Of a stretch of DNA of 63,913 nucleotides, positions 24,868 through 45,415 are shown one piece after another. Origin of the DNA: an uncultured Smithella sp. (GTDB lineage Bacteria > Desulfobacterota > Syntrophia > Syntrophales > Smithellaceae); NCBI GenBank assembly GCA_964480875.1, contig CAYZRT010000004.1, forward strand, positions 1-63,913, written 5' to 3'. Both the position numbers and the translations under genes were made by a program. Below the pieces are notes generated by a model. The model was not told the origin of the DNA and did not search any database. It saw only the letters and a list, made by a program, of their open reading frames with translations. Position 1 is the stretch's first letter. Each line of letters starts with the position of its first letter.

Positions 24868-24868
24868 T

Positions 24869-28116: not shown

Positions 28117-28170
28117 ATTATTTACATTCAAAATACAGAACTTTCTAATGATGGAGAATCAGGAGTAAGT

Positions 28171-28857: not shown

Positions 28858-28895
28858 TTTTTCAACTATCTTCCTAAATGGACATTTACTCACAG

Positions 28896-29633: not shown

Positions 29634-29649
29634 AGAAATTTTATAATGT

Positions 29650-31069: not shown

Positions 31070-31822
31070 ATGAATAAAGACAACTTAATTATATCGGCTG
31101 TCGGAGATAAATCTCTGCATAAAGAATGGATTAAATCCCACTCTGCTTTTGATGTCGTATTAATATATTACGGCAATAACGACGAAATATATTCTGATTA
31201 TAAAAAAGATGCCTTAATCTGTATTGCACAAACCGGCCAGAAATATCATTTAATTAAGATGTTCATTAAGGAAAACTTTGATTTTGTGTTGAAATATAAA
31301 TATGTCTGGTTACCCGACGACGATATTTCCATATCTGCGGATAATCTGAATGACATGTTTAATATAGCGAAAGAGTACAACTTATATATTTGTCAGCCCT
31401 CCGTAATATCTTCGGACGGTAAAGTCGGGCATGAAATAACCAGACCCAGGAAGGGTTTCAAACTAAGATTTACAAATTTTGTAGAGGTTATGATGCCGTT
31501 GTTCAAGGTTGAAACTCTTCTGTCGCTCTACGACGATTTTGATCTTTCCGAATCCAGTTGGGGATTAGATGCATTATGGCCACATCGATTAAATTATCCG
31601 ACAAACAGATTGGCTATCATTGACGAAATATCAGCCCTGCATACCAGATCCGCAGGCTCTGATTATTCGAGATTTAAAATAAGACCGAAAACTGAATTAA
31701 AAAATATCCTGCGAAAATATGATATTTCCTTCAAAACAAAAAATTATTTATTTGTATCGAAAGACAATTCAATAAAGGTTCCATGGTTCAATAGATTTTT
31801 CCGTCTTTACCGTAAAAAATAG
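31070..31822 (+). CDS. Hypothetical protein, DUF707-like
   Basis: 250 aa and AT-rich. The WLPDDDI acidic motif and overall layout resemble DUF707. The family call is from memory only. Confidence 0.45.
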   Translation: MNKDNLIISAVGDKSLHKEWIKSHSAFDVVLIYYGNNDEIYSDYKKDALICIAQTGQKYHLIKMFIKENFDFVLKYKYVWLPDDDISISADNLNDMFNIAKEYNLYICQPSVISSDGKVGHEITRPRKGFKLRFTNFVEVMMPLFKVETLLSLYDDFDLSESSWGLDALWPHRLNYPTNRLAIIDEISALHTRSAGSDYSRFKIRPKTELKNILRKYDISFKTKNYLFVSKDNSIKVPWFNRFFRLYRKK

Positions 31823-32016: not shown

Positions 32017-32253
32017 TCGTCGTACATGAATTGCTGGCCGAATCGCATCATGTATGGGGTTGATGACGATGCAGAGAGAAGAGGTTCGATTCGATGAATT
32101 CTTCAAGTCCAGATTGCTACAACGCGTACTTCTTCGGTTATTTTCATAAGTCAACTTGTTGCCATGTCCCCTATGAACTTTTCTTTTTCTACCATTGCTT
32201 CTGCGAGGGTTATTTAGAAAATATTAATGATGATTTTTCCGGAGGTATTGCCT

Positions 32254-33012
32254 ATGCCTAAGATTGTCAATCATGACGAGTACCGTCGGGAACTTCTGAC
32301 AAAATCCTTCAATTTGTTTACCCGTAAAGGGTATACCAATATAACCATGGATGAGATCGCGGCGGAAATCGGCGTATCCAAAGGGATTCTCTATCACTAT
32401 TTCCCCTCCAAGGAAAAAATGCTCGCCCAGATGATTTCGTGGACCGGCTATCAAAACACGGAAGAGTATATCAGGCGGACAAGTTCTGTGGAAAAAGTCC
32501 GTGATCGTTTTGACATGATTGTGGATTACTGGAGAGAAAAGGGCAAACTTTATGAAAGCATCCTGCTGCTGGCGTTTGACATGTACCGCAACGCGGACAT
32601 CGAGCACTGGAAGCCGCTCTATGATCTTTTTGCCGAACGCTATACGGCTGGAATGTCGGAACGACTAAACATTTCGCGGCAGTTTGCTCACTCCATATTC
32701 ATTTATTTTCTTGGCCTTTCTTTCCATTCAGTGGCAACCGGCAGCGACACCAAAGAATACAACAAACAAATAGATTTCCTTGACGTCATATTCAGGCCTC
32801 TCATTGTGGACGCGCCCGAAGATCTGGATAAAGCCGCGCAAAAATTCAAGGACGTGTACAAAACCTTTCTGGCCGATTTGCCGGTTGTCAAAAAAGGCTC
32901 CGTTCAAAAGAAAATAAAAAATACAAAGACAGTAAAAGCTGAAAAAAAGATTAAAAGAGTTGAACCAAAACAAAAAAAATTAATCTCGAATAAATCGAAT
33001 AAAAAACAATAA
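32254..33012 (+). CDS. TetR/AcrR-family transcriptional regulator with a Lys-rich C-terminal tail
   Basis: The HTH region is FTRKGYTNITMDEIAAEIGVSKGILYHYFPSKE. GGAGG lies 8 nt before the ATG. The tail is KKGSVQKKIKNTKTVKAEKKIKRVEPKQKKLISNKSNKKQ. Confidence 0.85.
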   Translation: MPKIVNHDEYRRELLTKSFNLFTRKGYTNITMDEIAAEIGVSKGILYHYFPSKEKMLAQMISWTGYQNTEEYIRRTSSVEKVRDRFDMIVDYWREKGKLYESILLLAFDMYRNADIEHWKPLYDLFAERYTAGMSERLNISRQFAHSIFIYFLGLSFHSVATGSDTKEYNKQIDFLDVIFRPLIVDAPEDLDKAAQKFKDVYKTFLADLPVVKKGSVQKKIKNTKTVKAEKKIKRVEPKQKKLISNKSNKKQ

Positions 33013-33029
33013 CCGGTAAAGGAGGCACC

Positions 33030-34271
33030 ATGAATAAAACACTCGATGAGTTGTTTGTTTACCCGAAAGAGTTGGTGGATGAAGAGTCGAAACGTGTAAT
33101 TCACCTCGTAAGACAATGGGCCGATAAGGAAATCATATCTAAACGTCAGGAGTATCGTGAAAATTACGAAAAGCTCTTTATCGAAACCAGAAAATCGCTC
33201 AATCTTACCATTGGTTTGCAAAGGCTCACTTTGCCGGAAGAACATGGCGGTTTTGGGTGGCATAATCCCGCCAGCACACCGGGTATCGTTTCCGTTCTTA
33301 CCGAAATCGGGCGTGCCGATGCCGCTATCGGCGTCACCTCCGCGATAAAATGCGTAATCTTTGCCGCAACCACTTTATTGCCTCATTTGGACAAAGCCGT
33401 TTGCGATGTACTGGCGCCGATTTACTGCGCCGATGAACTGAAAACCCCGTCCCTCATTCTTCCCGGCATGGGCACGGCCGGCGAGGACACTCCGCTGTTT
33501 TTAGGCAGATCAATTCTGGCCACAGTGGAACCAGATGGGGACGGATACGCGGTCAACGGAAAAAATATGAGGCCTTTAAACAGCGGCGCCGTGGCCGATC
33601 TTTTCTGTGTGGTCTGCGCCGACAAGTTGGGACGCCCCTGTGTCGCTCTGGTTCCCGGCGACGACAGAAATGTCTTGCGCGGCAAAACGCTACTGGAGAC
33701 CGGTCTCAACGCCAGCGCCAACTGCGATGTCAGTTTTAATCATGTCAGAATTCCCAAGTCCTATCTGATTGACCGCGACGGCGTGGTTGAGCAAATTTAC
33801 ACCTGGCTCAACCTGCTGCTCGGCGGCGTGAGCGTCGGCGTGGGAATGAATTTCTTCGAAATCGTCACGGACTGGTCCGAAACCAGAACCATCAAGGGTG
33901 GAACCATGATGAAAGAAAATCCCCTTTGTGCTTCCGTTCTCGCTGACGTGGCCGATGAAGTCTTCACCGCCAGGCTTCTTCTTTACAATCTGGCGCACAT
34001 TATGTCCAAGCCGGATGACTGGGGATACAGCGGGTCCCAGCGGGTTTACACGTTTTCGCAGATCATCGGTTCGCAGGTACAGCAGAAAATTATGCGGGCG
34101 ATTAACAGAGGGTTGGAACTGATGGGTTCCGCCGGTTATTCCAAAGAGTGGCATGTGGAAAAACAATGGCGTGATATCAAAACCATCCAGTCGTACCTTT
34201 GCGGAGTCGGTGCGGAAGCGCCGGTAAAAATGGATACGGCGCGGTTTTTCTTCGACTGCAAGCAGATTTAA
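33030..34271 (+). CDS. Acyl-CoA dehydrogenase family protein (non-canonical)
   Basis: ACAD-like throughout (EEHGGFGW..., WRDIKTIQSYLCG). The position of the MCAD-type YEGT glutamate reads SYLCG. Confidence 0.8.
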   Translation: MNKTLDELFVYPKELVDEESKRVIHLVRQWADKEIISKRQEYRENYEKLFIETRKSLNLTIGLQRLTLPEEHGGFGWHNPASTPGIVSVLTEIGRADAAIGVTSAIKCVIFAATTLLPHLDKAVCDVLAPIYCADELKTPSLILPGMGTAGEDTPLFLGRSILATVEPDGDGYAVNGKNMRPLNSGAVADLFCVVCADKLGRPCVALVPGDDRNVLRGKTLLETGLNASANCDVSFNHVRIPKSYLIDRDGVVEQIYTWLNLLLGGVSVGVGMNFFEIVTDWSETRTIKGGTMMKENPLCASVLADVADEVFTARLLLYNLAHIMSKPDDWGYSGSQRVYTFSQIIGSQVQQKIMRAINRGLELMGSAGYSKEWHVEKQWRDIKTIQSYLCGVGAEAPVKMDTARFFFDCKQI

Positions 34272-34285
34272 TAAGGAGGCCAATA

Positions 34286-35566
34286 ATGAAAAACTTCGAT
34301 GAATTCTCAAAACCGGAAGAATATATATCCCCGATGGATAAACACCTCCGCAGCGCGCTTCGTAACTGGGCAGACAAAGAGGTCATACCCTACCGGCGCA
34401 AATACGATGAAGACTGGAAAAACCATCACTTAATTGAACCGGCCTTCGACAAGCTCATGGGCAACAAGGGGCTGGGCATTCAGAAAGCGCTTTTCCCGCC
34501 GGAACTCGGCGGCTGGGGCATCGGACAGTCGGATTACGCCTTTACCGTGGCCTGCGCGCTGGCGGAAGAGGTCGGCAGGGCGGACACGGCTATGGCGGTC
34601 GCGTTTATGGTCACCTATTGGCCGCTTACGACAATACTTGTAACTCCTCATGTCAATTGGCGGCTGGCCCGGGAATTTGCCCCGATGTTCTGTGAAACCG
34701 AGAAAGCGGTTTTCGCGGCCAACGCCATGACGGAACCGCAGGGTGGAGCGGATATTGAAAATCTGGAAATTACCGGAGGCAAAACCATCCACACGACCGC
34801 CCGCCTCGATGGTGACGAATGGGTAATCAATGGGCACAAACTCTGGCCGACCAACACCGGCGGAGTGGCCAAACTTTTTGTCGTTCCCTGCACAACGAAG
34901 CTGGGCTCTACAGATCCCAACGACTTTGCCATGATATTTGTACCCGCCGATGCCAAAGGCGTAACCCAGGGGGGCCCTTACGAAAAAGCCGGTATGGCCG
35001 CCGACAAAAACGGCGACATCTGGTTTGAAGATGTAAGGGTTCCCAGCTGGTACCGGGCCCACGGACCGGGCATGGACGCGCAGGTCTTCCGCGAAATCAT
35101 TCCCTGGGGGCTGGTGGGAAGCATGGGATTTTTGTGCGGCGCAATGTTGAATCTCTACGAAATTCTCTACGATTTCGTTTCCACCAAAACCTATAAAAAC
35201 AGGCCATTGAAAGAAGACGACTGCGTCGCCGGAATCATCGGCCGCATCGCTGGCGATATCGACGTCTGCCGTATTCTGGCCTATGAAGCCGCCCGCATGG
35301 GCGACCGGCGTAACAAGCCCTATGGCTATCCGATTTATTCCGATGAAGTGGCCTGCAAAATGCGCAACCTCAAGGACTTTGTCTCCGACAGAGCGGTGGA
35401 TATTTTCGGCAAGGCCATGGATGTTCTGGGAACGTACGGCGCCGACCGCGAATACGATATCGAAAAACACTGGCGTGACATCAAAATTATTCAGTTATGG
35501 ATGGGCGGCAAGCAGCTCTGCCAGATGGAAGCAGCCCGGTATTTCTTCAATTGCAAGACATTATAG
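34286..35566 (+). CDS. Acyl-CoA dehydrogenase family protein (non-canonical)
   Basis: ATG 34286 follows AAGGAGG. AMTEPQGGADI is present, and WRDIKIIQLWMGG stands in place of the IYEGT block. Confidence 0.8.
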   Translation: MKNFDEFSKPEEYISPMDKHLRSALRNWADKEVIPYRRKYDEDWKNHHLIEPAFDKLMGNKGLGIQKALFPPELGGWGIGQSDYAFTVACALAEEVGRADTAMAVAFMVTYWPLTTILVTPHVNWRLAREFAPMFCETEKAVFAANAMTEPQGGADIENLEITGGKTIHTTARLDGDEWVINGHKLWPTNTGGVAKLFVVPCTTKLGSTDPNDFAMIFVPADAKGVTQGGPYEKAGMAADKNGDIWFEDVRVPSWYRAHGPGMDAQVFREIIPWGLVGSMGFLCGAMLNLYEILYDFVSTKTYKNRPLKEDDCVAGIIGRIAGDIDVCRILAYEAARMGDRRNKPYGYPIYSDEVACKMRNLKDFVSDRAVDIFGKAMDVLGTYGADREYDIEKHWRDIKIIQLWMGGKQLCQMEAARYFFNCKTL

Positions 35567-35577
35567 GAGACCGAACC

Positions 35578-36015
35578 ATGCAAGAAGGCAATAAGGGAGT
35601 GATTGATTTAACCGACCGCGTGCTGAAGGAGCTGCTCAAAAAGCCGGGCTTCAAGGAGAATGTCCGCACTGTGCTCCAGAATATCGATCCGGAATCGAGC
35701 CGCAGGCTGGTCAGGACGATGATGTGGCATGATCCGGAGTTTTTTCTGGGCGTACTGGGCGCTGTTCCCTCCATTGCCAATTCCTTGGTTCAATGCGTGG
35801 ACGAACTGCTCATTCAGCTCAACGAAAAATTTTCGCCGCAGCTGCTTCACGACTTTATGAAGTCGATTGTTTTGTCGCTGGACAAGGAAACTCTGGAAAG
35901 TATTGTCCGCAACGGGAAAGTGCTGGGAACGCAATTGTGGGTCATTGCGGAAGAAACATACAATGAACAGCAGGCTTCCAATACTGATACGGAGGGAGAT
36001 GAACATGGAAAATAA
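35578..36015 (+). CDS. Hypothetical helical protein, paralog 1 of 3
   Basis: 146 aa. It shares a ~75-aa module (NIDPESS...WHDPEFFLGVLGAVPSIANS...LNEKFSPQLLHDF...LDKETLESIV) with the next gene. Confidence 0.6.
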   Translation: MQEGNKGVIDLTDRVLKELLKKPGFKENVRTVLQNIDPESSRRLVRTMMWHDPEFFLGVLGAVPSIANSLVQCVDELLIQLNEKFSPQLLHDFMKSIVLSLDKETLESIVRNGKVLGTQLWVIAEETYNEQQASNTDTEGDEHGK

Positions 36016-36664
36016 CACCGTGATGCCCGCCGAAGGTGGCGTAATGAAAGAGGTGTTAAGCACACCCTTCGTGAAAGATTTGATTCGCAGTAATTTGCAG
36101 AACATCAAACCGGACAAAACGCATCCGGTGGTTAACGCTCTGATCTGGCAGGATCCGGAATTCATTCTGTCCGTTCTGGGATCGATTCCTACGGTCGTCA
36201 ATTCTTGCACCGGCGCTCTGGCGGAAGCGGGAAAACAAATCAATGAGAAATTTTCACCGGTACTGCTCAGGGATTATGTCGGGAGCATTCTGAAAGATAT
36301 TGACACGGAAGAATTGAAAGCCCTCGTTGAAGCTTACGTCGACCTTGGGAAAAATCTCTGGGAGGTTTCGCCGGAATTCAGGGAAATGGCGGGTCAAGCT
36401 TTAAAAGAAGATGCGCCGCCGCTGATCGGCAGAGGAATCAGTTCGGCCTGCCGCTTCGTTAATGAGGTCAGTAAAGAAGACCCGCGCGTGGTGAGCAAAT
36501 TTGTTTCCGATGTCGTTGCCAATATTGACGGCGATGAGTTTAAGGACGCGACTCATACGATTGTCAACGCGGTCCTTGATCAGAAGCTTCATTTGTTTTC
36601 CTGGACGTGGCAGTTGTTGTGCAAAAGGATGAAGAAGAAAAGTAAGAGAAAGGGTCATTATTGA
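36005..36664 (+). CDS. Hypothetical helical protein, paralog 2 of 3
   Basis: The start (36005, or 35999) overlaps the upstream stop, and GGAGGG lies upstream. The shared module is NIKPDKT...WQDPEFILSVLGSIPTVVNS...INEKFSPVLLRDY...IDTEELKALV. Confidence 0.6.
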   Translation: MENNTVMPAEGGVMKEVLSTPFVKDLIRSNLQNIKPDKTHPVVNALIWQDPEFILSVLGSIPTVVNSCTGALAEAGKQINEKFSPVLLRDYVGSILKDIDTEELKALVEAYVDLGKNLWEVSPEFREMAGQALKEDAPPLIGRGISSACRFVNEVSKEDPRVVSKFVSDVVANIDGDEFKDATHTIVNAVLDQKLHLFSWTWQLLCKRMKKKSKRKGHY

Positions 36665-36688
36665 AGATATTGAATGGAGGGATATTCC

Positions 36689-37972
36689 ATGAGTAATGTT
36701 GAAAAACCGGTTCAACCGGATAATGCCGCCGACCTTACCGGCAGTGTCGTGTGGAAAACAGTTAAAACTCCCATGATCAGAAAATTGATTACTGCCGCAG
36801 TTCATGAGGCACTAAAGGACTGGTCGGGCGACAGCAAGCTCAAGGCACGGATGTCCTCAAGCGTGGAAAATGTCGTGGAAAGTGTTTTGTCCACGGCAGA
36901 CAAAGCCGACGGCAAGATGGGCGTCGAACTGGGGAAGCTTTTAACCGCTTTTGCCCGGGAGACGAACGAGGAATTGAAGAAAGGATTAAAGGTCATTGAA
37001 GATCCCCGTCAGACCGCCATTAATGATTTTATCGTCAACACCGATTTTGGTGAGGTTAAGGAGATGATGGACCGCTCCGAAGGGCCTGTCATTCAAAACC
37101 TTGACATTGCCGTCGAATGCATCTGGAGATATCCGGCCAAAGTCGCATCGATACTGGCCTCACTCGTTTCCGCAGGCAATATCTCCGTCAAGAGCATTTC
37201 CATTATTATTAAGTCGCTTCTTGATAATCTCGGTCCGGATCTAACGGCCGATATTCTTCTTTCCATCGTGAGGGAGCTCAATGGCAAGGAAATAGGCAAG
37301 CTAACCAACAATGTTTCCGAACTGCTCCGTCGTATGCACACGGGGAGCCTCCTGCTGTCCAGGGGCGGCAAGTCACTTTTTGAAATTTACCTGACCAACC
37401 TTCTCAAGGATGCCGTCAGAGAGATAGATCCCGTCATTTTTACTAAAGCGCGCATCGCTCTGGCCGAAGACGGCGAAACCGTCGCCAAGTCCCTGGCGGA
37501 AGTGATGAGTGAAAATGAAAAAATGCTTTTTGCATCCGTGGCCGCCTATGCCGCTCTGGAGAATCCGAAGATCAGGGCCCGGGCCATTAAAATGAACCTT
37601 TATGAAAATGCCGATCAGGAAAAATTTATCGAAGCGGCAGCCAGCGGTATTTCCGATCTGGACACACAGGTCATGGCGGAGAATTTCAATGCAGCGCTCA
37701 GAATTATAAACAATATTCATGAAGCCAAGCCGGAGCTCTTTACGACTCTTCTGCGCGGATTTGCCGATTCCGTGGATGAAGATGAGCTGCAAAAAACGGC
37801 CCAATGGCTTGTTCCGGAGATTGTCGGCACTTTTAAAACGCTGGCTCCTGCGGCAATGCCTTCATTAATCAACGGATTCTGCGACATGGTTAAGGCAGAT
37901 CAAAGCGAGGAAGCCAGAAAGGCTATGGAAAACCTTAGATCTGTAATTTTAGCAGACGGAGGTGCGAAATGA
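36689..37972 (+). CDS. Hypothetical helical protein, distant paralog 3 of 3
   Basis: 427 aa from ATG 36689 (GGAGGG upstream). It is all-helical by composition with no Cys motifs, and shows weaker resemblance to the shared module (NLDIAVECIWRYPAKVASILASLVSAGN...). Confidence 0.55.
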   Translation: MSNVEKPVQPDNAADLTGSVVWKTVKTPMIRKLITAAVHEALKDWSGDSKLKARMSSSVENVVESVLSTADKADGKMGVELGKLLTAFARETNEELKKGLKVIEDPRQTAINDFIVNTDFGEVKEMMDRSEGPVIQNLDIAVECIWRYPAKVASILASLVSAGNISVKSISIIIKSLLDNLGPDLTADILLSIVRELNGKEIGKLTNNVSELLRRMHTGSLLLSRGGKSLFEIYLTNLLKDAVREIDPVIFTKARIALAEDGETVAKSLAEVMSENEKMLFASVAAYAALENPKIRARAIKMNLYENADQEKFIEAAASGISDLDTQVMAENFNAALRIINNIHEAKPELFTTLLRGFADSVDEDELQKTAQWLVPEIVGTFKTLAPAAMPSLINGFCDMVKADQSEEARKAMENLRSVILADGGAK

Positions 37973-39102
37973 TGAACGACTGGAAAGAAATTGTCAACAC
38001 AACAGAAAATTCCTACGTAAAAAAATGGAAAGAAAAAGGCAAGGCCGTCATTGGTTATCCATGTACCTTCGTTCCCGATGAAATTATTTATGCCGCCGAT
38101 ATTCTGCCTTATCGTTTAAGAGGAACGGGAACAACTTCTTCTTCCATCGGAGACACTTATTTCGGACCGGTGATCTGCAGTTTTCCCAAATGCGTTCTGC
38201 AACTTGCCGGAGAAGGAAAGTTTAATTTCCTTGACGGCACAATCATCGTGCCGGGATGCGATTCCATGAGAAGGCTGGATGAATGCTGGCGCAAGGCGGG
38301 CGAAGATTATCCGGGCATTGTCCCGGGATTCTTTCACTACTTCGGCGTACCCCATAAAGTGACTGACTATTCTCTGAAATGGTTTCATGAAGAAACGATA
38401 AAACTGCAGGGAAAAATCGAGGAACATTTCCACGTCAAGATAACCGATGAAGCCCTGAAAGGCGCCATACGAGTTTATAACGAAAGCAGAAAACTGCTCA
38501 TCCAGTTGGACAAGCTGCGCATCAAAGATGACGTTGTCATGACCGGAGAAGACGCGTTGATTATTATCCTGGCCAGCGCCGCCATGCCACGCGACGAATT
38601 CAACAAAATGCTTCGCAAAACCTTGTCGCAACTGGAAACGAAGAAAGAAACGATCAAGGGTAAAAAAAGGCTGATGCTGGTGGGATCCGCAAGTGACGAT
38701 CCGGAGTTCATGAAGGTTATCGAGGATTGCGGAGCCGTCATCGTCGCCGACACCATGTGTTTCGGTTCCCGCTCTTACAGTGATCTTACCGAGGAAGATG
38801 GTGATCCGCTGTTTGCTTTGGCTAAACGTTATCTCAATCATGCCTATTGTCCGCGAATGTTCGGATACTACAAGGAAAGATTAAAGTACATCATGGTCCG
38901 GGCGAAAGAAGCCAAAGTGGACGGGATTATTCTGCAGAATATCCGTTTCTGCGATCTGCACGGTTCGGAAAACGGCATTTTCGAAAGAGATCTGGAAAAA
39001 GAAGGCATCCCCTGCATGAGAATGGAGCGCGAGTACGGTCCGCTGACCGAGTCGGGACGTGTAAAAATGCGGGTTGACGCATTTCTGGAAAGAATTTCTT
39101 AA
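37969..39102 (+). CDS. BCR/HAD-family subunit, small type (BcrC/BadD/HgdB-like)
   Basis: 377 aa, with an ATGA overlap with the upstream gene. Conserved Cys contexts: GPVICSFPKC, VPGCDSMRRL, ADTMCFGSRSY and IRFCDLHG. Confidence 0.85.
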   Translation: MMNDWKEIVNTTENSYVKKWKEKGKAVIGYPCTFVPDEIIYAADILPYRLRGTGTTSSSIGDTYFGPVICSFPKCVLQLAGEGKFNFLDGTIIVPGCDSMRRLDECWRKAGEDYPGIVPGFFHYFGVPHKVTDYSLKWFHEETIKLQGKIEEHFHVKITDEALKGAIRVYNESRKLLIQLDKLRIKDDVVMTGEDALIIILASAAMPRDEFNKMLRKTLSQLETKKETIKGKKRLMLVGSASDDPEFMKVIEDCGAVIVADTMCFGSRSYSDLTEEDGDPLFALAKRYLNHAYCPRMFGYYKERLKYIMVRAKEAKVDGIILQNIRFCDLHGSENGIFERDLEKEGIPCMRMEREYGPLTESGRVKMRVDAFLERIS

Positions 39103-39118
39103 ACAAGGAGGATTTGCC

Positions 39119-39352
39119 ATGGAACAGCAGGATAAAATCGCCGTTGACGTTATTAAGAATATTGCCATTGATTCATCTCGGGTTCTGGCTGAAAGGCAGC
39201 GCGCCATCGATGCCCTGACCCTTTTTCATGAAGAAGCCCTTCCGGCGCTGAAAGAAATTGAAAAAATAGTTGACGTAAACATTCTTAAGGAAAGAGCCAG
39301 ACTCTATATTCAGAGAATCAAAGAAGGCGCTGTTTTGAGCATGAATGCTTAG
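39119..39352 (+). CDS. Small (77 aa) helical protein with a HEAT-like repeat
   Basis: AAGGAGG precedes ATG 39119. ERQRAIDALTLFHEEALPALKEI resembles a PBS-lyase/HEAT-type repeat. Confidence 0.4.
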   Translation: MEQQDKIAVDVIKNIAIDSSRVLAERQRAIDALTLFHEEALPALKEIEKIVDVNILKERARLYIQRIKEGAVLSMNA

Positions 39353-39455
39353 TAAGTTTGAATTTGTTTTATGCGATGAAACAAATTCATTAACGCACTT
39401 ACCCCGCACAGGCGGGACTTGTCCCGTTTATCGGGGTTAAAGGAAGGATAATAGG

Positions 39456-40859
39456 ATGAAGAAGGAGACTAGAGAATACAATTTTGACTGGAATATGTGG
39501 ACGATTCTGGAAAATGCCTCCAAGACGGCGGATGGTTCCCGCAAGGAATACGAAACGCTTCTCCCGTATATTCCTCACTATCGCAACGTACTGGATGCTT
39601 TTGCCAAGCACGGAGAACCGGGCATCCTTTTTTTGAAGATTATCGCCAAATACGCCAATGATTGCGTGCGCGCTCATATCGAGGGCAGAAAAACAGCGGG
39701 GGTAACATTCTGTTTTGCCACGCCCATTTTGTACGCTTTCAACATTCAGCCCATTGCGCTGGAACCGTGGAGCGTTCTGGCTACGGTTGTTTTGAAAAGG
39801 GGAACCGCCGAATTTCTGGATTATTGCAGCGAACTCGGTTTTACCGAAACATCCTGTTCATCGCAAAGAGGATCGCTGGGTGCTTATCTGTGCGGCTTGG
39901 CGACAAGCCTCGATTTTGTTGTTTATGACTCGCCGGGCATATGCGATACCAATGCCAACTCATTTTCGTTTGCCGCCTCCTATCTGGATATTCCCTTCTA
40001 TCAGTTAAACTACCCTTACACCCTGACTGATGAACGGGCGACGGAATATCACCGGGCGGATTTCAGGGGGCTGATAAAGTTTCTGGAAGAACAGACGGGC
40101 AGAAAGATGGATATGGATAGGCTGCGCGACGTCATGAATGAATCCAGAAAACAGGATGACCTGACCTGTGAATTGCTGGATTTACAGAGGCTCAGGCCCT
40201 GTCCCATGCCGCCGATATACGAGTTGATGCTTTACGGCGGGCGTTTCATGATGAACGGCACCCGGGAATACACGCTACTGCTGGAGTCCATGCTGAAGCA
40301 CACCCGAAAGAAAGCCGGGGAAGGCAAGGCCGGAACGACATCCGGCGAAGAAAAAGCCCGGGGTCTTTTCTGTTATATCGACCATTACACAACCGACGGA
40401 CGGCTTTGGGATTTCCTCGATCAACGCAATATTTCGCATATGGGGTCCATCCTGTTCAACTTCTGGCAGAAAGACAGTTTATACGCCGGGGGCAAGGAGG
40501 ACGAAGGCTATCGTTTTGATGACGAACACCTTGACGCCATCATTGATTCCCTTGCCGCCCAGATGTCCAGAATGCCGATGGTCAAACAAATCAGAGGGCC
40601 TTATGACGCGCCGGGCATGTGGCTGGACGACACCCTGGGCGCGATAAACATTATGAAGCCGGATTTCGTTGTTTATATGGGAACGATGGGTTGCCGCAAT
40701 ACCTGGGGAATGGTGAAACCTTTTGTTCGCGATCTGGAAAAGCACGGCATTCCGACGCTTTATATTTACGCGGACAGTTTTGATGACCGGGTGCAATCAT
40801 GGCAAGCCGTGGCGGATAAGCTTGAAGAGTTTCTGAATGTTCGTAAAATAGTGACATGA
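39456..40859 (+). CDS. BCR/HAD-family subunit, large type (BcrB/BadE/HgdA-like), copy 1
   Basis: 467 aa. TETSCSSQRGSLGAYL, YDSPGICDTNANSF and YMGTMGCRNTWG. Confidence 0.85.
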   Translation: MKKETREYNFDWNMWTILENASKTADGSRKEYETLLPYIPHYRNVLDAFAKHGEPGILFLKIIAKYANDCVRAHIEGRKTAGVTFCFATPILYAFNIQPIALEPWSVLATVVLKRGTAEFLDYCSELGFTETSCSSQRGSLGAYLCGLATSLDFVVYDSPGICDTNANSFSFAASYLDIPFYQLNYPYTLTDERATEYHRADFRGLIKFLEEQTGRKMDMDRLRDVMNESRKQDDLTCELLDLQRLRPCPMPPIYELMLYGGRFMMNGTREYTLLLESMLKHTRKKAGEGKAGTTSGEEKARGLFCYIDHYTTDGRLWDFLDQRNISHMGSILFNFWQKDSLYAGGKEDEGYRFDDEHLDAIIDSLAAQMSRMPMVKQIRGPYDAPGMWLDDTLGAINIMKPDFVVYMGTMGCRNTWGMVKPFVRDLEKHGIPTLYIYADSFDDRVQSWQAVADKLEEFLNVRKIVT

Positions 40860-40942
40860 ACGATGGTTGTTTGAGCCGGTTCACCATCTGAATTTTCTGC
40901 AGTAGAAAAACCGGCGTTTCCTTGTAAAGAAGGAGAATAAAC

Positions 40943-42346
40943 ATGAAAAGAGAAACTAGAGAATATAATTTTGACTGGAGCCTCTGGAATATTCTGGAAA
41001 ACGCGGCAAAAACATGTGACGGATCCCAAAAAGAATATGAAACTCTTCTTCCTTTCATACACCACTACAGGGATGTCTTGGATGCTTTTGTGAAACAGGG
41101 GGAACCTGGTGTTCTCTTTTTGAAGTTACTGGCCCGTTACATGAAAGACTGTGTCACGGCAAAGGAAAAGGGCAAGAAAGTTTCCATGACGACATTTTGT
41201 CTGGCTATTCCTATTCTTTATGCTTTTAATATCCAACCTCTGGCGCTGGAAGTGTGGTCTGTTCTGGGCACCATTGTACTCAAGCGAGGCACTGCGGAAT
41301 TTCTGGATTTCTGCTGTGAATTGGGATTTACGGAAACATCCTGCTCCGCCCAGCGTGGGGCTTTGGGTGCTTACCTGTCAGGTCTGGGCGTAAAACCGGA
41401 TCTCATCGTTTGTGACTCTCCAGGTGTCTGCGACACGAATGCCAATTCTTTCGCTTTTGCGGCAGCGTATCTTGATTTGCCGTTTTATCAATTAAATTAC
41501 CCGTCCACGTTAACAGAAGGTCGTTCGGAAAGATACCACCGTGAAGACTACAGAGGATTGATAAAATTTCTGGAAGAACAGACCGGCCAGAAACTCGACA
41601 TCGACAAACTAGGGGCAATTATAAGAGAAACTAAAAAGCAGGATGAACTTGCCTGTGAAATATTCGAAATGCTCAGGCTAAAACCTTCCCCTGTTCCCGC
41701 CATTTATGATCTTCTGCTCTATGGCGGAAAATTCATGATGGGTGGATTACCTCAATACACGGAACTACTGGAAGCGATGGTCCGAAAAGCAAAAGATAAT
41801 ATGCAAAAAGGAATCGCCGGAACATCATCAGGCAGGGAAAAGCTACGGGGGATGTTTTGCTATATTGATCATTATACAACAGATGCCCGGATGTGGAGTT
41901 TTCTGGATAGTAAAGATATCAGTCATCTTGGTTCCCTGCTCTTCGGCTTCTGGCAGACGGAAATGCCTTATGCGAAAGGCCGGGAAGCAGAAGGCTATGC
42001 CATTGATGACCGTTCTCTGGATTCGATGATTGATTCCATGGCCGCCATGAATTCCCGTATGCCCATGGTCAAACAAATCAGAGGGCCTTATGATATGCCG
42101 GAGATGTGGCGCGAAGATGTTATGGGTATGGTAAAGTTAACAAAGCCGGATTTCGTGGCCTATATGGGAACCATCGGCTGCCGCAACACCTGGGGCATGA
42201 TTAAATTGCTGGTCAGGGATCTGGAGAATGCCGGTGTCCCGACCATTGTTCTTTATGGAGACGGCTTTGACGACCGGGTACAGTCGTGGGAATCCATAAG
42301 CGATAAAATATCTGAATTCATACATGTCAGGGGGATATTAAAATGA
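40943..42346 (+). CDS. BCR/HAD-family subunit, large type, copy 2 (tandem paralog)
   Basis: 467 aa, collinear with copy 1 with no indels and roughly two thirds identical by eye. TETSCSAQRGALGAYL, CDSPGVCDTNANSF and YMGTIGCRNTWG. Confidence 0.85.
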   Translation: MKRETREYNFDWSLWNILENAAKTCDGSQKEYETLLPFIHHYRDVLDAFVKQGEPGVLFLKLLARYMKDCVTAKEKGKKVSMTTFCLAIPILYAFNIQPLALEVWSVLGTIVLKRGTAEFLDFCCELGFTETSCSAQRGALGAYLSGLGVKPDLIVCDSPGVCDTNANSFAFAAAYLDLPFYQLNYPSTLTEGRSERYHREDYRGLIKFLEEQTGQKLDIDKLGAIIRETKKQDELACEIFEMLRLKPSPVPAIYDLLLYGGKFMMGGLPQYTELLEAMVRKAKDNMQKGIAGTSSGREKLRGMFCYIDHYTTDARMWSFLDSKDISHLGSLLFGFWQTEMPYAKGREAEGYAIDDRSLDSMIDSMAAMNSRMPMVKQIRGPYDMPEMWREDVMGMVKLTKPDFVAYMGTIGCRNTWGMIKLLVRDLENAGVPTIVLYGDGFDDRVQSWESISDKISEFIHVRGILK

Positions 42347-43131
42347 TTGTAGCGGGATGTGATGTGGGCTCTCTGACCGCCAAGGCGGTCATCATGAACG
42401 GCTCTATTCTGGGGTCTGCGGTTATCAAGGCGAAAGCCAAACCGGAAGAATCAGCCTCCAAAGTTATGAATCAGGCTCTGGCCAAAGCCGGTTTGAAAAT
42501 GGAGGATATTTCTTTCTGCGTCGGCACCGGATACGGCAGAAATAAAATTCCCTTTGTCAATGTAACGATGTCGGAAATTGCCTGTCACGGCAGGGGAGCG
42601 CAATGGATCATGCCATCCGTTAGGACGGTTATTGACATCGGAGGGCAGGATTGCAAAGCTATGCGTCTGGACAAGGATGGAAATGTTCTTAAGTTTTCTA
42701 CCAATGACAAGTGTGCTGCCGGAACAGGAAGGTTTCTGGAGGTCATGGCCAAACTGCTGGGAGTGAGTCTTGATGAACTGGGAACCATATCGGAAAACGC
42801 CAAGGACCCTCTGTCGCTTTCGTCCACCTGTACGGTCTGGGTACAGGCCGAAGTGATTCACCACCTCAATTCCCAAAAACCCATAGAAGATATTGCCGCG
42901 GCGATCAACCGGGCAATGGCCATTCGTGTCGCCATTTTGGCCAATCAAGTCAGCGCCGAAAGGGACATCTGCATGTCGGGTGGAGTGGCGAAAAACAAAG
43001 GCGTCGTTGCCGATTTGGAAAAGGTGCTGGGAATGAAGATTAAAAAGCTGAAATATGATCCTCAAATCGTCGGAGCGATAGGCGCAGCAGTCATCGCCGG
43101 GGAGAAAGCAAAAGGAGGGAAGGCATCATGA
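42343..43131 (+). CDS. BcrAD/BadFG/HgdC-type activase ATPase, copy 1
   Basis: MIVAGCDVGSLTAKAVIM, GTGYGR, EIACHGRGA, IDIGGQDCKA, NDKCAAGTGRFLE and GGVAKN. ATGA overlap with the upstream gene. Confidence 0.9.
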   Translation: MIVAGCDVGSLTAKAVIMNGSILGSAVIKAKAKPEESASKVMNQALAKAGLKMEDISFCVGTGYGRNKIPFVNVTMSEIACHGRGAQWIMPSVRTVIDIGGQDCKAMRLDKDGNVLKFSTNDKCAAGTGRFLEVMAKLLGVSLDELGTISENAKDPLSLSSTCTVWVQAEVIHHLNSQKPIEDIAAAINRAMAIRVAILANQVSAERDICMSGGVAKNKGVVADLEKVLGMKIKKLKYDPQIVGAIGAAVIAGEKAKGGKAS

Positions 43132-43907
43132 TCGTAGCCGGATGCGACGTCGGTTCTTTGACGGCCAAAGCCGTTATTATGAAAAATAATGAAATACTGG
43201 CAGCAAAAGTTATACGGGCGAAATCCCATCCGGAGGAGTCGGCGCGGAAAATCATGGCGCAGGCCCTGGAACAGGCTGGTCTTGTAATAGATGAAATATC
43301 CTATTGCGTGGGAACGGGCTACGGCCGGGCCAGCATTCCTTTCGCCACTTCGGTGGAATCGGAAATTGCCTGCCATGGCAGAGGCGCCCAGTGGCAGATG
43401 CCGTCGGTGAGAATGGTCATTGACATCGGCGGGCAGGATGCCAAGGCGATTCGTCTCGATGAAAAAGGAAACGTTATCAGATATGTTTATAATGATAAAT
43501 GCGCTTCCGGAACGGGCAGGTTTCTGGAGGTGATGGCCGACGCGTTAAGCATTGACATTACTGAAATGGGAGCTGTTTCCCTTTCTTCACAAAATCCGAT
43601 CAGCATTTCCAATCAATGCGTCATCTTCGCGGAAACGGAAATTGTTTCTTTAATCAATGAGGGCAAAAACATGGCCGATATTGTCAGCGGCTTGCACAAT
43701 GCATTAGCGCACAGGGTTGCCGCATTGGCCAAGGGAATTGAACTGCAGGAAGACATCGTCATGACGGGCGGCGTTGCCAAGAACGAAGGCATGTTTATGG
43801 CCCTGGAAAAAGCCCTGAGCAAAAAAATTAAAAATGTCGGAAGAGATCCTCAGGTCAATGGCGCCTTGGGAGCGGCTATTTTTGCCGCCGAACGTTTGAA
43901 AAATTAA
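43128..43907 (+). CDS. BcrAD/BadFG/HgdC-type activase ATPase, copy 2
   Basis: It has the same motif set (NDKCASGTGRFLE, GGVAKN). The first 18 aa are identical to copy 1, but the DNA differs at many synonymous sites. Confidence 0.9.
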   Translation: MIVAGCDVGSLTAKAVIMKNNEILAAKVIRAKSHPEESARKIMAQALEQAGLVIDEISYCVGTGYGRASIPFATSVESEIACHGRGAQWQMPSVRMVIDIGGQDAKAIRLDEKGNVIRYVYNDKCASGTGRFLEVMADALSIDITEMGAVSLSSQNPISISNQCVIFAETEIVSLINEGKNMADIVSGLHNALAHRVAALAKGIELQEDIVMTGGVAKNEGMFMALEKALSKKIKNVGRDPQVNGALGAAIFAAERLKN

Positions 43908-43920
43908 GGATGTAATTTTT

Positions 43921-44655
43921 ATGGAGCTTTTCGAACACACCTTCGATGAAATCCGAAATTTTTCAAGCAAAAGAAAAGGTAAATCCTGGATTCCGGAACC
44001 GTATGCCAAGCACTGGCCGGAAGGGGGCGGCAGAGACGTTGTTTTGTCTGATGACATGGGCGTGGAGCTGGGCAGTCCGCAGATGGAATCCTCTTCCTGC
44101 TTAATCTGGACGGAAAATTCCGATCTGGTTTGTGATCGCAAAATTACACTGATCGGTCCCGATGTTCCGTCGAGCTTAAACACGAGCTTGTCTTTCGGAA
44201 AGGTCGTTCTTGTTGCAGTCAGTGGATTTAATGAGGACAATACTTACGACCGTTACAAGGAAATGGAATCTGTCAGATATGCCATCGATCTGAAAGGATA
44301 CATGATCAGGGCCGTATCCCAGTATCAGCGGGAATGGAGCCGTATCAGCCGAGAGGCCGTGCAAAACGGTTTTTCTTTTGAGGTGCTGGGTCAGGCTCTG
44401 CGGAATGAATATATGAAGAAAGATTTTATTCATTCCGTCGAATTTCTTTTTGTTACGTCAAATTCGGAAGATGTGCGCGAACTCCAGGAAATAACAAAAA
44501 ATGTGGGAAGGACAATCAATGCCCTGGATAAAATGCTCAACGAAATAAATTCAGATTGTGACGAGTGCGAGTATAACGATGTTTGCGATGAGGTGGCGGA
44601 ACTTAAAAGCATGAGAAAATTACGTAATGGAAAAAGGATGAACCAACATGACTAA
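43921..44655 (+). CDS. Truncated acetyl-CoA synthase (AcsB/CdhC) middle-domain-like protein
   Basis: MGVELGSPQ..., KITLIGPDV, WSRISREAVQNGFSFEVLGQAL, VEFLFVTSNSEDVRELQEI and a terminal CDECEYNDVC align by eye with Moorella AcsB (VEMGGNRTP..., IEVIGPDI, WLRVSKDAVAKGFRFKNYGEIL, VQVTIFTDEAKVKEYMEV, CVLCQSFAPNHVC) as I recall that sequence. Confidence 0.6.
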   Translation: MELFEHTFDEIRNFSSKRKGKSWIPEPYAKHWPEGGGRDVVLSDDMGVELGSPQMESSSCLIWTENSDLVCDRKITLIGPDVPSSLNTSLSFGKVVLVAVSGFNEDNTYDRYKEMESVRYAIDLKGYMIRAVSQYQREWSRISREAVQNGFSFEVLGQALRNEYMKKDFIHSVEFLFVTSNSEDVRELQEITKNVGRTINALDKMLNEINSDCDECEYNDVCDEVAELKSMRKLRNGKRMNQHD

Positions 44656-45415
44656 AAAAACAAAGACGATTGCTTTGTGCGGAAAAGGCGGGGTGGGAAA
44701 GACGTCGGTATCCGCGCTGATGGTAAAGAATCTTACTCAAAGAAAAGACATCAAGGTGCTGGCCATCGATGCCGATCCTGCCATAGGCCTTTGCACGGCA
44801 TTGGGAATACAAATCAAAAAAACCGTGGATGATATCAGAAATGATTTAATCAATTCTATTAGGAAAGGAGCAAGCCAGGATAAAGCCGCAACGCTGAACA
44901 GGCTGGATTATGAGCTTTTTGATGCCCTGACGCAATTCAAAAATATCGCTTTTCTGGCCATAGGACGGCCGGAATCGGAAGGTTGCTTCTGCAAGGTCAA
45001 CTCTCTTTTGAAAGATATCATTCAGGATCTGGCGAAAAATTTTGACGTGGTGCTCATCGACGGAGAAGCCGGCGTCGAACAAATCAACCGCAGAGTGATG
45101 AAAACGGTCGATCATCTGATTATGATATCCGACACTTCTGCCAAGGGGATTCATGTTGCCCATACCATCAAGCATCTGGCCGAGGACAACAAAGCCGTAA
45201 ATTATAAAAGCATGGGAATGATTTTGAACCGCGTCAGAAATGAGAGCGAAGTACACGATATCCGAAAGAACATCCCCATCAATATTCTGGGATGGCTGCC
45301 GGAGGACGATCTGATCAGGGAATTCGATTTTTACGGCAGGTCTTTCCTTGATTTTCCGGATACGGCCGAAGCGGGCAAAAAAGTAAACGTCATGATAGAC
45401 GCCATGAATTTATAA
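44648..45415 (+). CDS. cooC: CooC/AcsF-type P-loop maturation ATPase
   Basis: The P-loop is IALCGKGGVGKTS, followed by LAIDADP, the CxC metal motif in PESEGCFCKV, and VLIDGEAGVEQ. The start overlaps the upstream gene by 8 nt. Confidence 0.85.
   Translation: MTKKTKTIALCGKGGVGKTSVSALMVKNLTQRKDIKVLAIDADPAIGLCTALGIQIKKTVDDIRNDLINSIRKGASQDKAATLNRLDYELFDALTQFKNIAFLAIGRPESEGCFCKVNSLLKDIIQDLAKNFDVVLIDGEAGVEQINRRVMKTVDHLIMISDTSAKGIHVAHTIKHLAEDNKAVNYKSMGMILNRVRNESEVHDIRKNIPINILGWLPEDDLIREFDFYGRSFLDFPDTAEAGKKVNVMIDAMNL

Follow-up and report, generated by a model that had tools for sequence, protein, structure and literature searches.

A conserved Smithella operon joins benzoyl-CoA reductase/2-hydroxyacyl-CoA dehydratase relatives to an ACS middle-domain protein, CooC and a new helical family: a candidate ATP-coupled acyl-CoA reductase

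It was found that a Smithella genome carries a 14-gene operon that may represent an uncharacterised branch of the benzoyl-CoA reductase (BCR)/2-hydroxyacyl-CoA dehydratase (HAD) superfamily. I see about an even chance that this branch, which has a class I (Bzd-type) build, is an ATP-coupled acyl-CoA reductase. An ATP-coupled radical reductase of acyl-CoA is the best reading of the locus, and a dehydratase is less likely. The operon is widespread, and its combination of a BCR/dehydratase relative with an ACS fragment, CooC and a new helical family has not been seen before. ORF listing and translation placed 14 tightly packed co-directional genes at 32227-45415 on the plus strand (to which all coordinates below refer) of the window, the whole 63,913-nucleotide stretch analysed. 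Neighbouring genes lie 8-17 nt apart or overlap by 4-11 nt at every junction but two, where the gaps widen to 103 nt (between 39352 and 39456) and 83 nt (between 40859 and 40943). The preliminary description had the gene kinds, order and spacing right but counted 15 genes, while its own list holds 14 items. It had also claimed an ATP-dependent Fe-S radical enzyme system of the BCR/HAD family unlike any characterised operon. This claim is supported: no characterised operon syntenic with the cluster was found, and the catalytic proteins score far below the family cut-offs in the NCBIfam profile search. The bulky (alicyclic, aromatic or isoprenoid) acyl-CoA substrate that it also proposed goes further than these data reach.

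Two different BcrAD/HgdC-type ATPases are encoded side by side. ATPase a (262 aa, 42343..43131; BcrAD_BadFG 202 bits) and ATPase b (259 aa, 43128..43907; 191 bits) are 57% identical, and ATPase a exceeds the TIGR00241 cut-off (250 versus 125 bits). The cluster-bridging residues, Cys124 and Cys163 in a and Cys125 and Cys164 in b, are 100% conserved. The start of ATPase a overlaps the stop of the preceding large-subunit gene, and the ATPase a and b genes also overlap. ATPase a was found in 70 of 73 loci and ATPase b in 64 of 68. The overlapping junctions, the retention of both ATPases and the invariant bridging Cys residues argue for a four-subunit, BCR-like build, and the products would form a complex. 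The two ATPases would share a bridging [4Fe-4S] cluster, and their ATP hydrolysis would drive a low-potential electron into the remaining enzyme. The main competing explanation, which I consider unlikely though far from negligible, is a redox-neutral enzyme of the 2-hydroxyacyl-CoA dehydratase type that needs only catalytic ATP. It would dehydrate 2-hydroxyacyl-CoA or, in reverse, hydrate enoyl-CoA, with the ACAD-like pair interconverting enoyl-CoA and acyl-CoA, as in an acrylate-type or lactate-type route or in anaerobic alpha-oxidation of branched acids. The two distinct conserved ATPase genes speak against it; every characterised dehydratase is known to work with one homodimeric activator.

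From the ATPases, the electron would pass to the small HGD-D subunit (377 aa, 37969..39102; HGD-D 299 bits). Its best PDB match is BzdN (8s02_B, 169 bits), followed by HadC (123), MbdN (116) and DCCP (98), while its NCBIfam scores remain below the cut-offs (double_cubane, 186 versus 350; bzdN, 161 versus 454). Six residues, C32, C70, C97, C264, C294 and C328, fall in the Cys columns common to BzdN and DCCP, and their conservation across 72 orthologs is 99-100%. In the alignment, HadC and MbdN have no Cys in some of these columns. The six-Cys pattern, unlike that of HadC, is a second point against a dehydratase. An [8Fe-9S] cluster has been demonstrated only in BzdN and DCCP, both from reductases (PMC11971306). 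Judging from these residues, the small subunit is a predicted carrier of an [8Fe-9S] double-cubane cluster.

The large HGD-D subunits are very far from characterised enzymes. Large subunits 1 (467 aa, 39456..40859; HGD-D 160 bits) and 2 (467 aa, 40943..42346; 151 bits) are paralogs with 65% identity, and two copies occur in 21 of the 70 loci that have the complete core. HadB is the best characterised match (NCBIfam 54, PDB 41 bits), ahead of DCCP (28-35), BcrB (24) and BzdO (19); the NCBIfam cut-offs for BzdO and BcrB exceed 440. In subunit 1, E103, C134, C163 and C413 do not vary among 17 diverse homologs. The first three fall opposite Glu65, Cys95 and Cys128 of BzdO; C413, in a 'GCRN' motif outside the BzdO alignment, is probably the counterpart of Cys380. 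The large subunit is predicted to be catalytic, with a three-Cys [4Fe-4S] cluster. The electron would arrive at this cluster, which would offer an open iron site beside the conserved Glu, and the CoA thioester would be reduced via a ketyl-type radical. Two observations weigh against a reductase and favour the dehydratase. The large subunit is marginally closer to HadB than to BzdO and BcrB, and the position of BzdO His131 is occupied by Asn, HadB likewise lacking the His. His131 is one of two residues beside the cluster-bound water in BzdO (PMC11971306).

Could the enzyme be a dearomatising class I BCR with an unusual aromatic substrate, such as a benzoyl-CoA analogue or a tetrahydronaphthoyl-CoA-like compound? 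The four-subunit layout, the proximity of the small subunit to BzdN and the Glu65 equivalent would all fit, as would the origin of Smithella and Desulfatibacillum in hydrocarbon-degrading settings. However, the large subunit reaches only 19-24 bits with the BzdO and BcrB models, the His131 equivalent is absent, the content of the thn operon differs, and genes for a dienoyl-CoA hydratase, a hydroxyacyl-CoA dehydrogenase and a ring hydrolase are missing. The hosts are not known as aromatic degraders either. An aromatic substrate is therefore improbable.

The preliminary description had pointed out that the partners expected for known systems are missing, and the scan of nearly all window ORFs of at least 150 aa agreed. 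It revealed no crotonase-family hydratase or hydrolase, CoA-transferase, 2-hydroxyacid dehydrogenase, 2-oxoacid:ferredoxin oxidoreductase or stand-alone ferredoxin. The lack of the CoA-transferase and the 2-hydroxyacid dehydrogenase argues against a dehydratase, while the lack of a ferredoxin within the operon, together with ACAD genes beside the HGD-D genes, argues against a reductase. An ACAD gene next to the HGD-D genes is a feature of the classic dehydratase operons (had/lcd). The hosts are energy-limited obligate anaerobes, for which a stoichiometric ATP cost would be unfavourable; this also favours the dehydratase. The MFS transporter gene directly downstream of the cluster is of the SfMCT-type L-lactate/monocarboxylate kind (NCBIfam 363 bits versus cut-off 320), which would suit a lactate-type route, but it is missing at the closest relative, locus L089 (91-96% identical). 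The preliminary description had leaned on this transporter, which is not conserved. Aldehyde dehydrogenase or AFOR genes beside some relatives are a further point for the dehydratase. Weighing these observations, I still favour a net reduction, rather than a dehydration, as the probable reaction.

The ACAD-like pair lies upstream of the core in about 72% of the loci around the 78 best large-subunit matches. ACAD-like protein A (413 aa, 33030..34271) is divergent; its N, M and C domain matches are weak, with the middle domain under the Pfam cut-off, and in NCBIfam it reaches no more than 50 bits, where the cut-offs exceed 430. ACAD-like protein B (426 aa, 34286..35566) has ACAD domains and a 'TEPQGGAD' motif but scores at most 97 bits against NCBIfam cut-offs above 470. 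The two are 29% identical. At the canonical catalytic Glu position, A has Leu ('SYLCG'), and B has Met ('LWMGG') in place of the Glu (YEG) in the alignment to 3pfd; the loss of this Glu from both is another point against the reductase reading. A was found in 39 of 54 evaluable related loci and B in 43 of 59. B is the most conserved protein of the cluster, being 71-95% identical where the large subunit is only 50-65% identical. The acyl-CoA of the radical step may also be handled by these flavoproteins, directly ahead of that step or directly following it. The first gene of the operon encodes a TetR-family regulator (32227..33012; Pfam TetR_N, 59 bits); the start at 32254 given earlier is its second ATG, with the upstream start at 32227. 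A TetR gene of the same type occurs in 20 of 49 related loci, and 27 loci have one from a second TetR cluster, so that a TetR gene of either type goes with most related loci.

Is this gene set common in other genomes? The divergent large subunit is encoded at at least 271 genome loci, mostly of Smithella, Syntrophaceae and Desulfomonilia, and also in the cultured species Desulfatibacillum alkenivorans and Desulfocicer vacuolatum. In the neighbourhoods of the 78 best matches, a core of the 432-aa helical protein, the small and large subunits and the two ATPases is near-universal (92-97% of loci), with the small subunit in 69 of 73 evaluable loci. The gene order is repeated in dozens of independent genomes and metagenome contigs, which is more than chance. 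The preliminary description would have been undermined by accessory genes that do not travel with the BCR/HAD genes; they are strongly co-conserved. Several MAGs have two paralogous copies of the cluster, as is typical when the members of a catabolic enzyme family differ in their substrates. In many extended loci, a second set with one ATPase and a flavodoxin-ferredoxin protein, dehydratase-like in layout, adjoins the cluster. This sets the two-ATPase system apart and argues against a dehydratase function for it.

Between the ACAD-like genes and the small subunit lie the genes of helical paralog 1 (146 aa, 35575..36015), helical paralog 2 (219 aa, 36005..36664) and an all-helical core protein of 432 aa (36674..37972). 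A Pfam search gave no family for any of them, nor did NCBIfam for paralog 1. The preliminary description took them for three paralogs of no assigned family, and profile-profile comparison (hhalign) bore this out: the 146- and 219-aa proteins match with a probability of 99.9% (E 2e-37; 40% identity), the 219- and 432-aa proteins with 98.7% (E 1.6e-16), and the 146- and 432-aa proteins with 97.7% (E 2e-12). The proteins of no assigned family are kept at 25-94% identity across taxa. Paralogs 1 and 2 were found in 38 of 62 and 41 of 63 loci, respectively, and the 432-aa protein in 63 of 65, immediately 5′ of the small subunit, whose start overlaps its stop codon. All 399 representative clusters of the 432-aa family are stand-alone proteins of 410-530 aa. 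Its AF2 model has 20 helices (pLDDT 72, pTM 0.45), and a fold search against the PDB gave no match. The 432-aa protein may be translationally coupled to the small subunit as a fifth, structural component, and the role of the two short paralogs is probably to tether the ACAD-like pair. The conserved helical 77-aa protein (39119..39352), which BLAST detects next to the large-subunit gene in 38 of 77 loci, showed no relationship to the three paralogs in profile-profile comparison, and its earlier 'HEAT-like' label has no Pfam match.

An ACS fragment (244 aa, 43921..44655; Pfam CdhC 52 bits) and a CooC-family P-loop ATPase (255 aa, 44648..45415; CbiA/MinD-type match) lie downstream of the core in about 85% of the loci around the 78 best large-subunit matches (56 of 65 and 52 of 62 loci, respectively). 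The former had been described as a truncated AcsB; in fact, it is the ACS middle domain only, without any A-cluster ligand, so ACS chemistry cannot be inferred. The sequence match spans only ACS residues ~334-482, and the AF2 model (pLDDT 80) matches only ACS chains (E 3e-11). It was assessed whether the pair could be decayed CODH/ACS remnants, with the ORFs of no family not being genes at all. The missing ligands would agree with such decay, but over 340 clusters show the ACS fragment as a uniform ~244-aa protein, and its C-terminal CxxCx5C motif holds two invariant residues, C213 and C222, besides C216, which is conserved to at least 90%. With the ACS fragment as the anchor, BcrAD ATPase genes were found nearby in 40 and HGD-D genes in 37 of 41 independent contigs, and CooC follows immediately 3′ in 50 of 56 metagenome loci. 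Since these synteny counts contradict it and the proteins of no assigned family are conserved, a chance neighbourhood is hardly credible. The best PDB match of CooC is CooC1 of C. hydrogenoformans (3kje, 74 bits), and the alignment takes in the metal-binding CXC motif; the Walker A motif GKGGVGKT of CooC and C113/C115 of the CXC motif are 100% conserved in 53 orthologs. The pair also lies beside other HGD-D clades (L001, L003, L139 and L147), whose large subunits are 21-26% identical, which argues for a generic role. Most likely, it is a generic cofactor-maturation or accessory module, which may serve several clades of these enzymes by ATP-dependent delivery or repair of metal or clusters. On the other hand, BzdNO made in E. 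coli obtains its [8Fe-9S] cluster, so a dedicated maturase is not obviously needed; handling of CoA esters would be an alternative role.

Among known systems, the class I reductase BzdNOPQ (8S02, PMC11971306) shares with the cluster two HGD-D subunits, two different BcrAD-type ATPases, a small subunit (nearest to BzdN) with all six double-cubane Cys residues, and a large subunit with three Cys (two directly aligned to BzdO) and a Glu beside the open iron site. In contrast, the large subunit of the cluster is scarcely recognisable as BzdO, with Asn for His131; the cluster lacks the ferredoxin and dienoyl-CoA pathway genes, adds the helical family, the ACAD-like pair, the ACS middle-domain protein and CooC, and has obligate anaerobes as hosts. 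The dehydratases Had (HadBC/HadI, for (R)-2-hydroxyisocaproyl-CoA), Hgd, Fld and Lcd also have an HGD-D heterodimer with a three-Cys [4Fe-4S] catalytic subunit, an HgdC-type ATPase and an ACAD gene within the operon. However, they have one ATPase gene instead of two, HadC lacks the Cys264 equivalent of the six, the cluster has no CoA-transferase, 2-hydroxyacid dehydrogenase or Etf, and its subunits reach only 54 and 157 bits against Had-type cut-offs of 750 and 700. DCCP with DCCP-R (6ENO, 7YYL) resembles the cluster in the six-Cys [8Fe-9S] motif and ATP-driven electron delivery, but in DCCP a single HGD-D protein forms a homodimer, accompanied by one reductase gene and acting on small molecules, whereas the cluster encodes a heterodimer in which a distinct catalytic subunit putatively binds acyl-CoA. 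The thn operon likewise comes from a strict anaerobe and encodes an ATP-dependent reductase of class-I-like type, with beta-oxidation-like genes around it and a regulator in first place; it differs in its hydratases of the crotonase and MaoC families, its ferredoxin and its hydrolases, lacks the ACS fragment, CooC and helical proteins, and shows no synteny. Finally, ACS with AcsF (a CooC-type maturase) and the CooC of CODH offer the precedent of an ACS-derived domain paired with a CooC-family ATPase bearing Walker A and CXC motifs. Here, the ACS part is a middle domain devoid of A-cluster ligands, CODH and corrinoid proteins are lacking, and the pair sits inside HGD-D/BcrAD operons.

Fourteen consecutive plus-strand ORFs at 32227-45415 were found by ORF listing and translation. 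The preliminary description counted 15 genes, a miscount because its own list holds 14 items, while its account of the close packing and of the gaps agrees with the ORF listing and translation. Neighbouring ORFs overlap by 4-11 nt or are 8-17 nt apart, except for two gaps of 103 nt and 83 nt that flank the gene of the first large subunit. According to Pfam and NCBIfam, the operon encodes a TetR regulator, two divergent ACAD-like proteins (A and B), a 377-aa HGD-D protein (the small subunit), two 467-aa HGD-D proteins (the large subunits, 65% identical to each other), two BcrAD/HgdC-type ATPases (a and b, 57% identical to each other), a 244-aa protein matching the CdhC family (the ACS fragment), and a MinD/CooC-type P-loop ATPase (CooC). 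The 77-aa protein and the 146-, 219-, and 432-aa proteins have no family in either database. The last three had been regarded as paralogs of one another, and hhalign comparisons of their ortholog alignments gave probabilities of 99.9%, 98.7%, and 97.7%, in agreement with this view. A promoter and terminator scan found no site bounding the operon, the promoter-like counts lying within the range of shuffled sequences, and Rfam and tRNA scans of the window found no RNA gene.

Which kind of enzyme may this operon encode? Among solved structures, the small subunit is closest to BzdN (169 bits), followed by HadC (123 bits), MbdN (116 bits), and DCCP (98 bits). Both BzdN and DCCP have a double-cubane [8Fe-9S] cluster with six cysteine ligands (PMC11971306; PMC7317905). 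In the alignments, Cys32, Cys70, Cys97, Cys264, Cys294, and Cys328 of the small subunit fall in the cysteine columns common to BzdN and DCCP, and these six residues are kept in 99-100% of 72 orthologs. HadC has no equivalent of Cys264, and MbdN lacks three of the six cysteines. The small subunit has the full six-cysteine ligand set of double-cubane cluster proteins and is thus a predicted [8Fe-9S] carrier. The large subunits are very remote from all characterised relatives, scoring 41-54 bits against HadB, 28-35 against DCCP, 24 against BcrB, and 19 against BzdO. Nevertheless, Glu103, Cys134, Cys163, and Cys413 are invariant when 17 diverse homologs are aligned; Glu103, Cys134, and Cys163 match Glu65, Cys95, and Cys128 in the BzdO alignment, while Cys413, in an invariant GCRN motif, is the probable counterpart of the third ligand, Cys380 of BzdO. 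The position of BzdO His131 is occupied by Asn. In each of the ATPases, the two cluster-bridging cysteines are 100% conserved among the orthologs.

Judged from these sequence features, the architecture is most likely that of a class I (Bzd-type) reductase rather than that of a dehydratase, because there are two differing ATPase subunits translationally coupled to the catalytic subunit, because the double-cubane pattern of the small subunit has so far been demonstrated in reductases only, and because the cluster predicted in the catalytic subunit has three Cys ligands, an open iron site, and a Glu nearby. The main rival is a redox-neutral, dehydratase-type reaction, for which speak the slightly better HadB scores, the missing equivalent of BzdO His131, the adjoining ACAD genes, and the energy-poor hosts. 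In the favoured reductase mechanism, ATP-coupled transfer would bring a low-potential electron to the acyl-CoA on the large subunit, with a net reduction as the result. The 432-aa helical protein would be a fifth, structural subunit, the 146- and 219-aa paralogs would connect the ACAD-like flavoproteins to the complex, and the ACAD-like pair would act on the same thioester.

Is this gene set common in other genomes? A large-subunit profile scan with one genome per GTDB species gave at least 271 loci, the top match being 97% identical and from an uncultured Smithella, which places the window in a Smithella-type organism. Other carriers include Smithella of alkane-degrading cultures, Syntrophaceae, Desulfomonilia, Phox-21, and Desulfobacterales, together with a few Bacillota and Leptospirales MAGs, and several MAGs have two loci per genome. 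Two carriers are cultured, Desulfatibacillum alkenivorans DSM 16219 and Desulfocicer vacuolatum DSM 3385. Gene presence was scored in the 78 best loci, only where the contig extends far enough. The small subunit was present in 69/73 evaluable loci, ATPase a in 70/73, ATPase b in 64/68, and the 432-aa protein in 63/65. The co-conservation of accessory genes with the BCR/HAD (benzoyl-CoA reductase/2-hydroxyacyl-CoA dehydratase) genes, on which the preliminary proposal depended, was borne out, for example by the ACS fragment (56/65) and CooC (52/62). ACAD-like B was found in 43 of 59 evaluable loci, ACAD-like A in 39 of 54, the 219-aa paralog in 41 of 63, the 146-aa paralog in 38 of 62, and the 77-aa protein in 38 of 77. 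The large-subunit gene is doubled in 21 of the 70 loci with a complete core. In a second, independent scan of metagenomes anchored on the ACS fragment, CooC lies immediately 3′ of the ACS fragment in 50/56 loci, and the context includes a BcrAD ATPase in 40/41 and an HGD-D protein in 37/41. A rare exception (locus L088) has an ACS-fragment homolog (~51% identical) on a 9.4-kb contig without CooC, HGD-D, or BcrAD genes, beside two AMP-dependent ligases, a geranylgeranyl-reductase-like flavoprotein, and a carotenoid-synthase-like gene.

In one Smithella subgroup (loci L079-L083 and L091-L105), conservation is a mosaic: identity to the window is 68-95% in the flanking modules (TetR, ACAD-like pair, short paralogs, ACS fragment, and CooC) but just 34-63% in the core, made up of the 432-aa protein, the small and large subunits, and the ATPases, so the core seems to be an exchangeable module. 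This pattern suggests either an exchange of the core cassette or its replacement by a paralog. Loci that lack the ACAD-like pair frequently have a GMC-type flavoprotein in its place. In 25/53 loci, a second, divergent system with a single ATPase and a dehydratase-like layout, often including a flavodoxin-ferredoxin fusion, lies directly 3′ of the ACS-fragment and CooC genes; it is absent from the window. In one such locus (L087, 11508-17165), it consists of the flavodoxin-ferredoxin fusion, HGD-D proteins of 374 and 505 aa, a 434-aa Fe-S protein, and a single BcrAD ATPase.

ACAD-like protein B is the most conserved protein of the cluster. Neither ACAD-like protein has the canonical catalytic Glu, which is Met in B and Leu in A, and an alternative catalytic base may be used. 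The 432-aa protein is predicted to be all-helical in an AF2 model. A fold search with this model found no significant PDB match, which is weak evidence because of the low pTM (0.45). Among 1.84 billion representative proteins, no domain fusion of the helical family was found but only stand-alone proteins, including every one of the 399 representative clusters of the 432-aa family.

The homology of the ACS fragment is limited to the middle domain of ACS (residues ~334-482), and its AF2 model (pLDDT 80) matches only ACS chains in the PDB (E 3e-11). Comparison with ACS in sequence and structure did not find the A-cluster ligands. A conserved CxxCx5C at the C-terminus spans a loop modelled with low confidence and the beginning of the final helix; it was considered as an ACS A-cluster motif and rejected since the two do not align. 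By its sequence, the P-loop protein is a true CooC family member: it scores 74 bits against CooC1 (3kje) vs ≤38 against MinD, and its CXC metal-binding motif aligns with that of CooC1 and is 100% conserved. The ACS-fragment and CooC pair is also found beside other HGD-D clades whose large subunits are just 21-26% identical. The pair would be a generic accessory because several enzyme clades are served. The CooC motifs point to a role in metal or cluster delivery or repair, while the ancestry of the ACS middle domain points to CoA binding. It is a bolder and rather unlikely idea that the two proteins form a dedicated ATP-dependent cofactor assembly or repair system for a whole BCR/HAD-type branch. 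If so, there would be an unrecognised heterometal (e.g., Ni-containing) or specially matured double-cubane cofactor; the core enzyme with the helical scaffold and the ACAD-like flavoprotein would be a new class of ATP-driven acyl-CoA reductase; and obligate syntrophs and sulfate reducers would use such a reductase for one step in the degradation of fatty-acid- or hydrocarbon-derived carbon.

Downstream of the operon are an MFS transporter gene (45738-47096), a divergent TetR gene, a second ACAD pair, an SDR, an SCPx-type thiolase, and an acyl-CoA ligase, as well as a 258-aa ORF with no match in Pfam, NCBIfam, or PDB sequences. The transporter belongs to the SfMCT L-lactate (monocarboxylate) equivalog of NCBIfam (363 bits vs a cut-off of 320), which hints at a lactate/acrylate pathway. 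This pathway was set aside, since the nearest relative, a 91-96% identical metagenome locus (L089) that otherwise shares the downstream genes, and other loci lack the transporter. Further on, a protein of 828 aa (55900-58386) fuses ferredoxin, nitroreductase, and GltD-like NAD(P)H oxidoreductase domains; the stretch 58929-63250 then has a divergent GntR gene and genes for an SCPx-type thiolase of 467 aa, an SDR, and a small Fe-S protein. In the last ~660 nt (63251-63913), all frames are free of long ORFs, and neither an Rfam family nor a tRNA was found. In three related loci (L001, L003, and L005), the set of GntR, thiolase, ligase, nitroreductase, and ferredoxin genes occurs together with an extra pair of BcrAD ATPases and a further two HGD-D proteins, a grouping that forms a second conserved BCR/HAD-like module. 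In L003, a lone 52-aa ORF (14446-14604), with a DctP gene on one side and the BcrAD ATPases of the related cluster on the other, matches Pfam BssC_TutF, the family of the small Fe-S subunit of benzylsuccinate synthase; no glycyl-radical enzyme gene was found nearby.

The glycan region 5′ of 32 kb has no relation to the operon finding. The first part (1-20000) has a low GC content (32-39% over 6-16 kb) and six genes with a B12-binding domain, in five of which a radical-SAM domain is detectable. B12-binding/radical-SAM genes lie at 534-2081, 6551-8005, 16460-17920, and, on the minus strand, 9321-10781, and a weak match with the B12 domain only lies at 2097-3425. A truncated ORF (19-534) has only a radical-SAM domain, and an additional radical-SAM gene lies at 15396-16451. 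With several methyltransferases, a U32 peptidase-like gene, and a PMT_2 glycosyltransferase, this part looks like a cell-envelope glycan or lipid modification island. The second part (20175-31822) is an LPS or polysaccharide cluster that directly abuts the operon, with heptose/sugar-nucleotide genes (an epimerase, an NTP-transferase/HAD phosphatase fusion, a GHMP kinase, and a SIS isomerase), a glycosyltransferase, a START-domain protein, a Kdo/WaaP-type kinase, and a UDP-galactopyranose mutase.

No description of the operon was found in a full-text literature search, and no earlier report is known of an ACS-derived domain and a CooC ATPase with the BCR/HAD superfamily. The enzyme is best filed as a deep, widespread, uncharacterised BCR/HAD clade with a distinctive conserved accessory set. 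The preliminary proposal of an undescribed ATP-dependent radical CoA-ester system with new, co-conserved accessories stands, while its suggestion of a bulky substrate found no support. The reactions of BCR/HAD enzymes are among the most reducing in biology, and only a handful of their substrate classes are known. The clade is notable for its spread, with relatives of its large subunit at no fewer than 271 genome loci, and for its frequent occurrence in multiple copies per genome. Its hosts Smithella, Syntrophaceae, and Desulfomonilia play a key part as syntrophs in anaerobic digesters, oil reservoirs, and sediments, and their carbon pathways are only partly understood. The fixed link to three new protein families and a CooC-type metallochaperone, for which no precedent was found in the superfamily, could reveal new cofactor biogenesis or a new organisation of radical acyl-CoA chemistry, and the two cultured strains, D. 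alkenivorans and D. vacuolatum, make the question open to experiment.

How does the operon compare with known systems? None of the curated NCBIfam thresholds for bzdN, bzdO, bzdQ, bcrA-D, HadB, HadC, and double_cubane was reached: the scores and cut-offs were 161 vs 454 bits for bzdN, 19 vs 449 for bzdO, 200 vs 380 for bzdQ, 24 vs 487 for bcrB, 140 vs 421 for bcrC, 54 vs 750 for HadB, 157 vs 700 for HadC, and 186 vs 350 for the double_cubane equivalog. The thn operon was ruled out as an ortholog, as its gene content differs and there is no synteny; no characterised operon syntenic with this one was found, in line with the preliminary proposal. It resembles class I BCRs in having four subunits, two HGD-D proteins and two differing BcrAD-type ATPases by Pfam. 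The active-site surroundings of the [4Fe-4S]-OH2 cluster in class I BCRs comprise three Cys plus Glu65 and His131 (BzdO numbering); here the picture is mixed, with aligned, invariant equivalents of Glu65, Cys95, and Cys128, an invariant Cys413 that is probably the match of Cys380, and an Asn aligned with His131. Ferredoxin, dienoyl-CoA hydratase, dehydrogenase, and ring hydrolase genes were not found among the window ORFs. The partners listed as missing in the preliminary description were indeed not found: a scan of nearly all window ORFs of at least 150 aa gave no crotonase-family enzyme, 2-oxoacid:ferredoxin oxidoreductase, CoA-transferase, or 2-hydroxyacid dehydrogenase, the last two being the operon partners of dehydratases. 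The dehydratases (Hgd, Had, Fld, and Lcd) have a single gene for a homodimeric activator, whereas the operon has two ATPase genes, both conserved. Double-cubane cluster proteins are homodimers of one protein, whereas the small subunit is paired with a different large subunit. MCAD-type acyl-CoA dehydrogenases have a catalytic Glu, which the operon's pair has replaced while having the ACAD fold. Unlike acetyl-CoA synthase (AcsB/CdhC), the ACS fragment is without the A-cluster domain and the Cys ligands for the [4Fe-4S] and Ni-Ni site, while CooC resembles CooC/AcsF in its deviant Walker A (GKGGVGKT) and CXC motifs.
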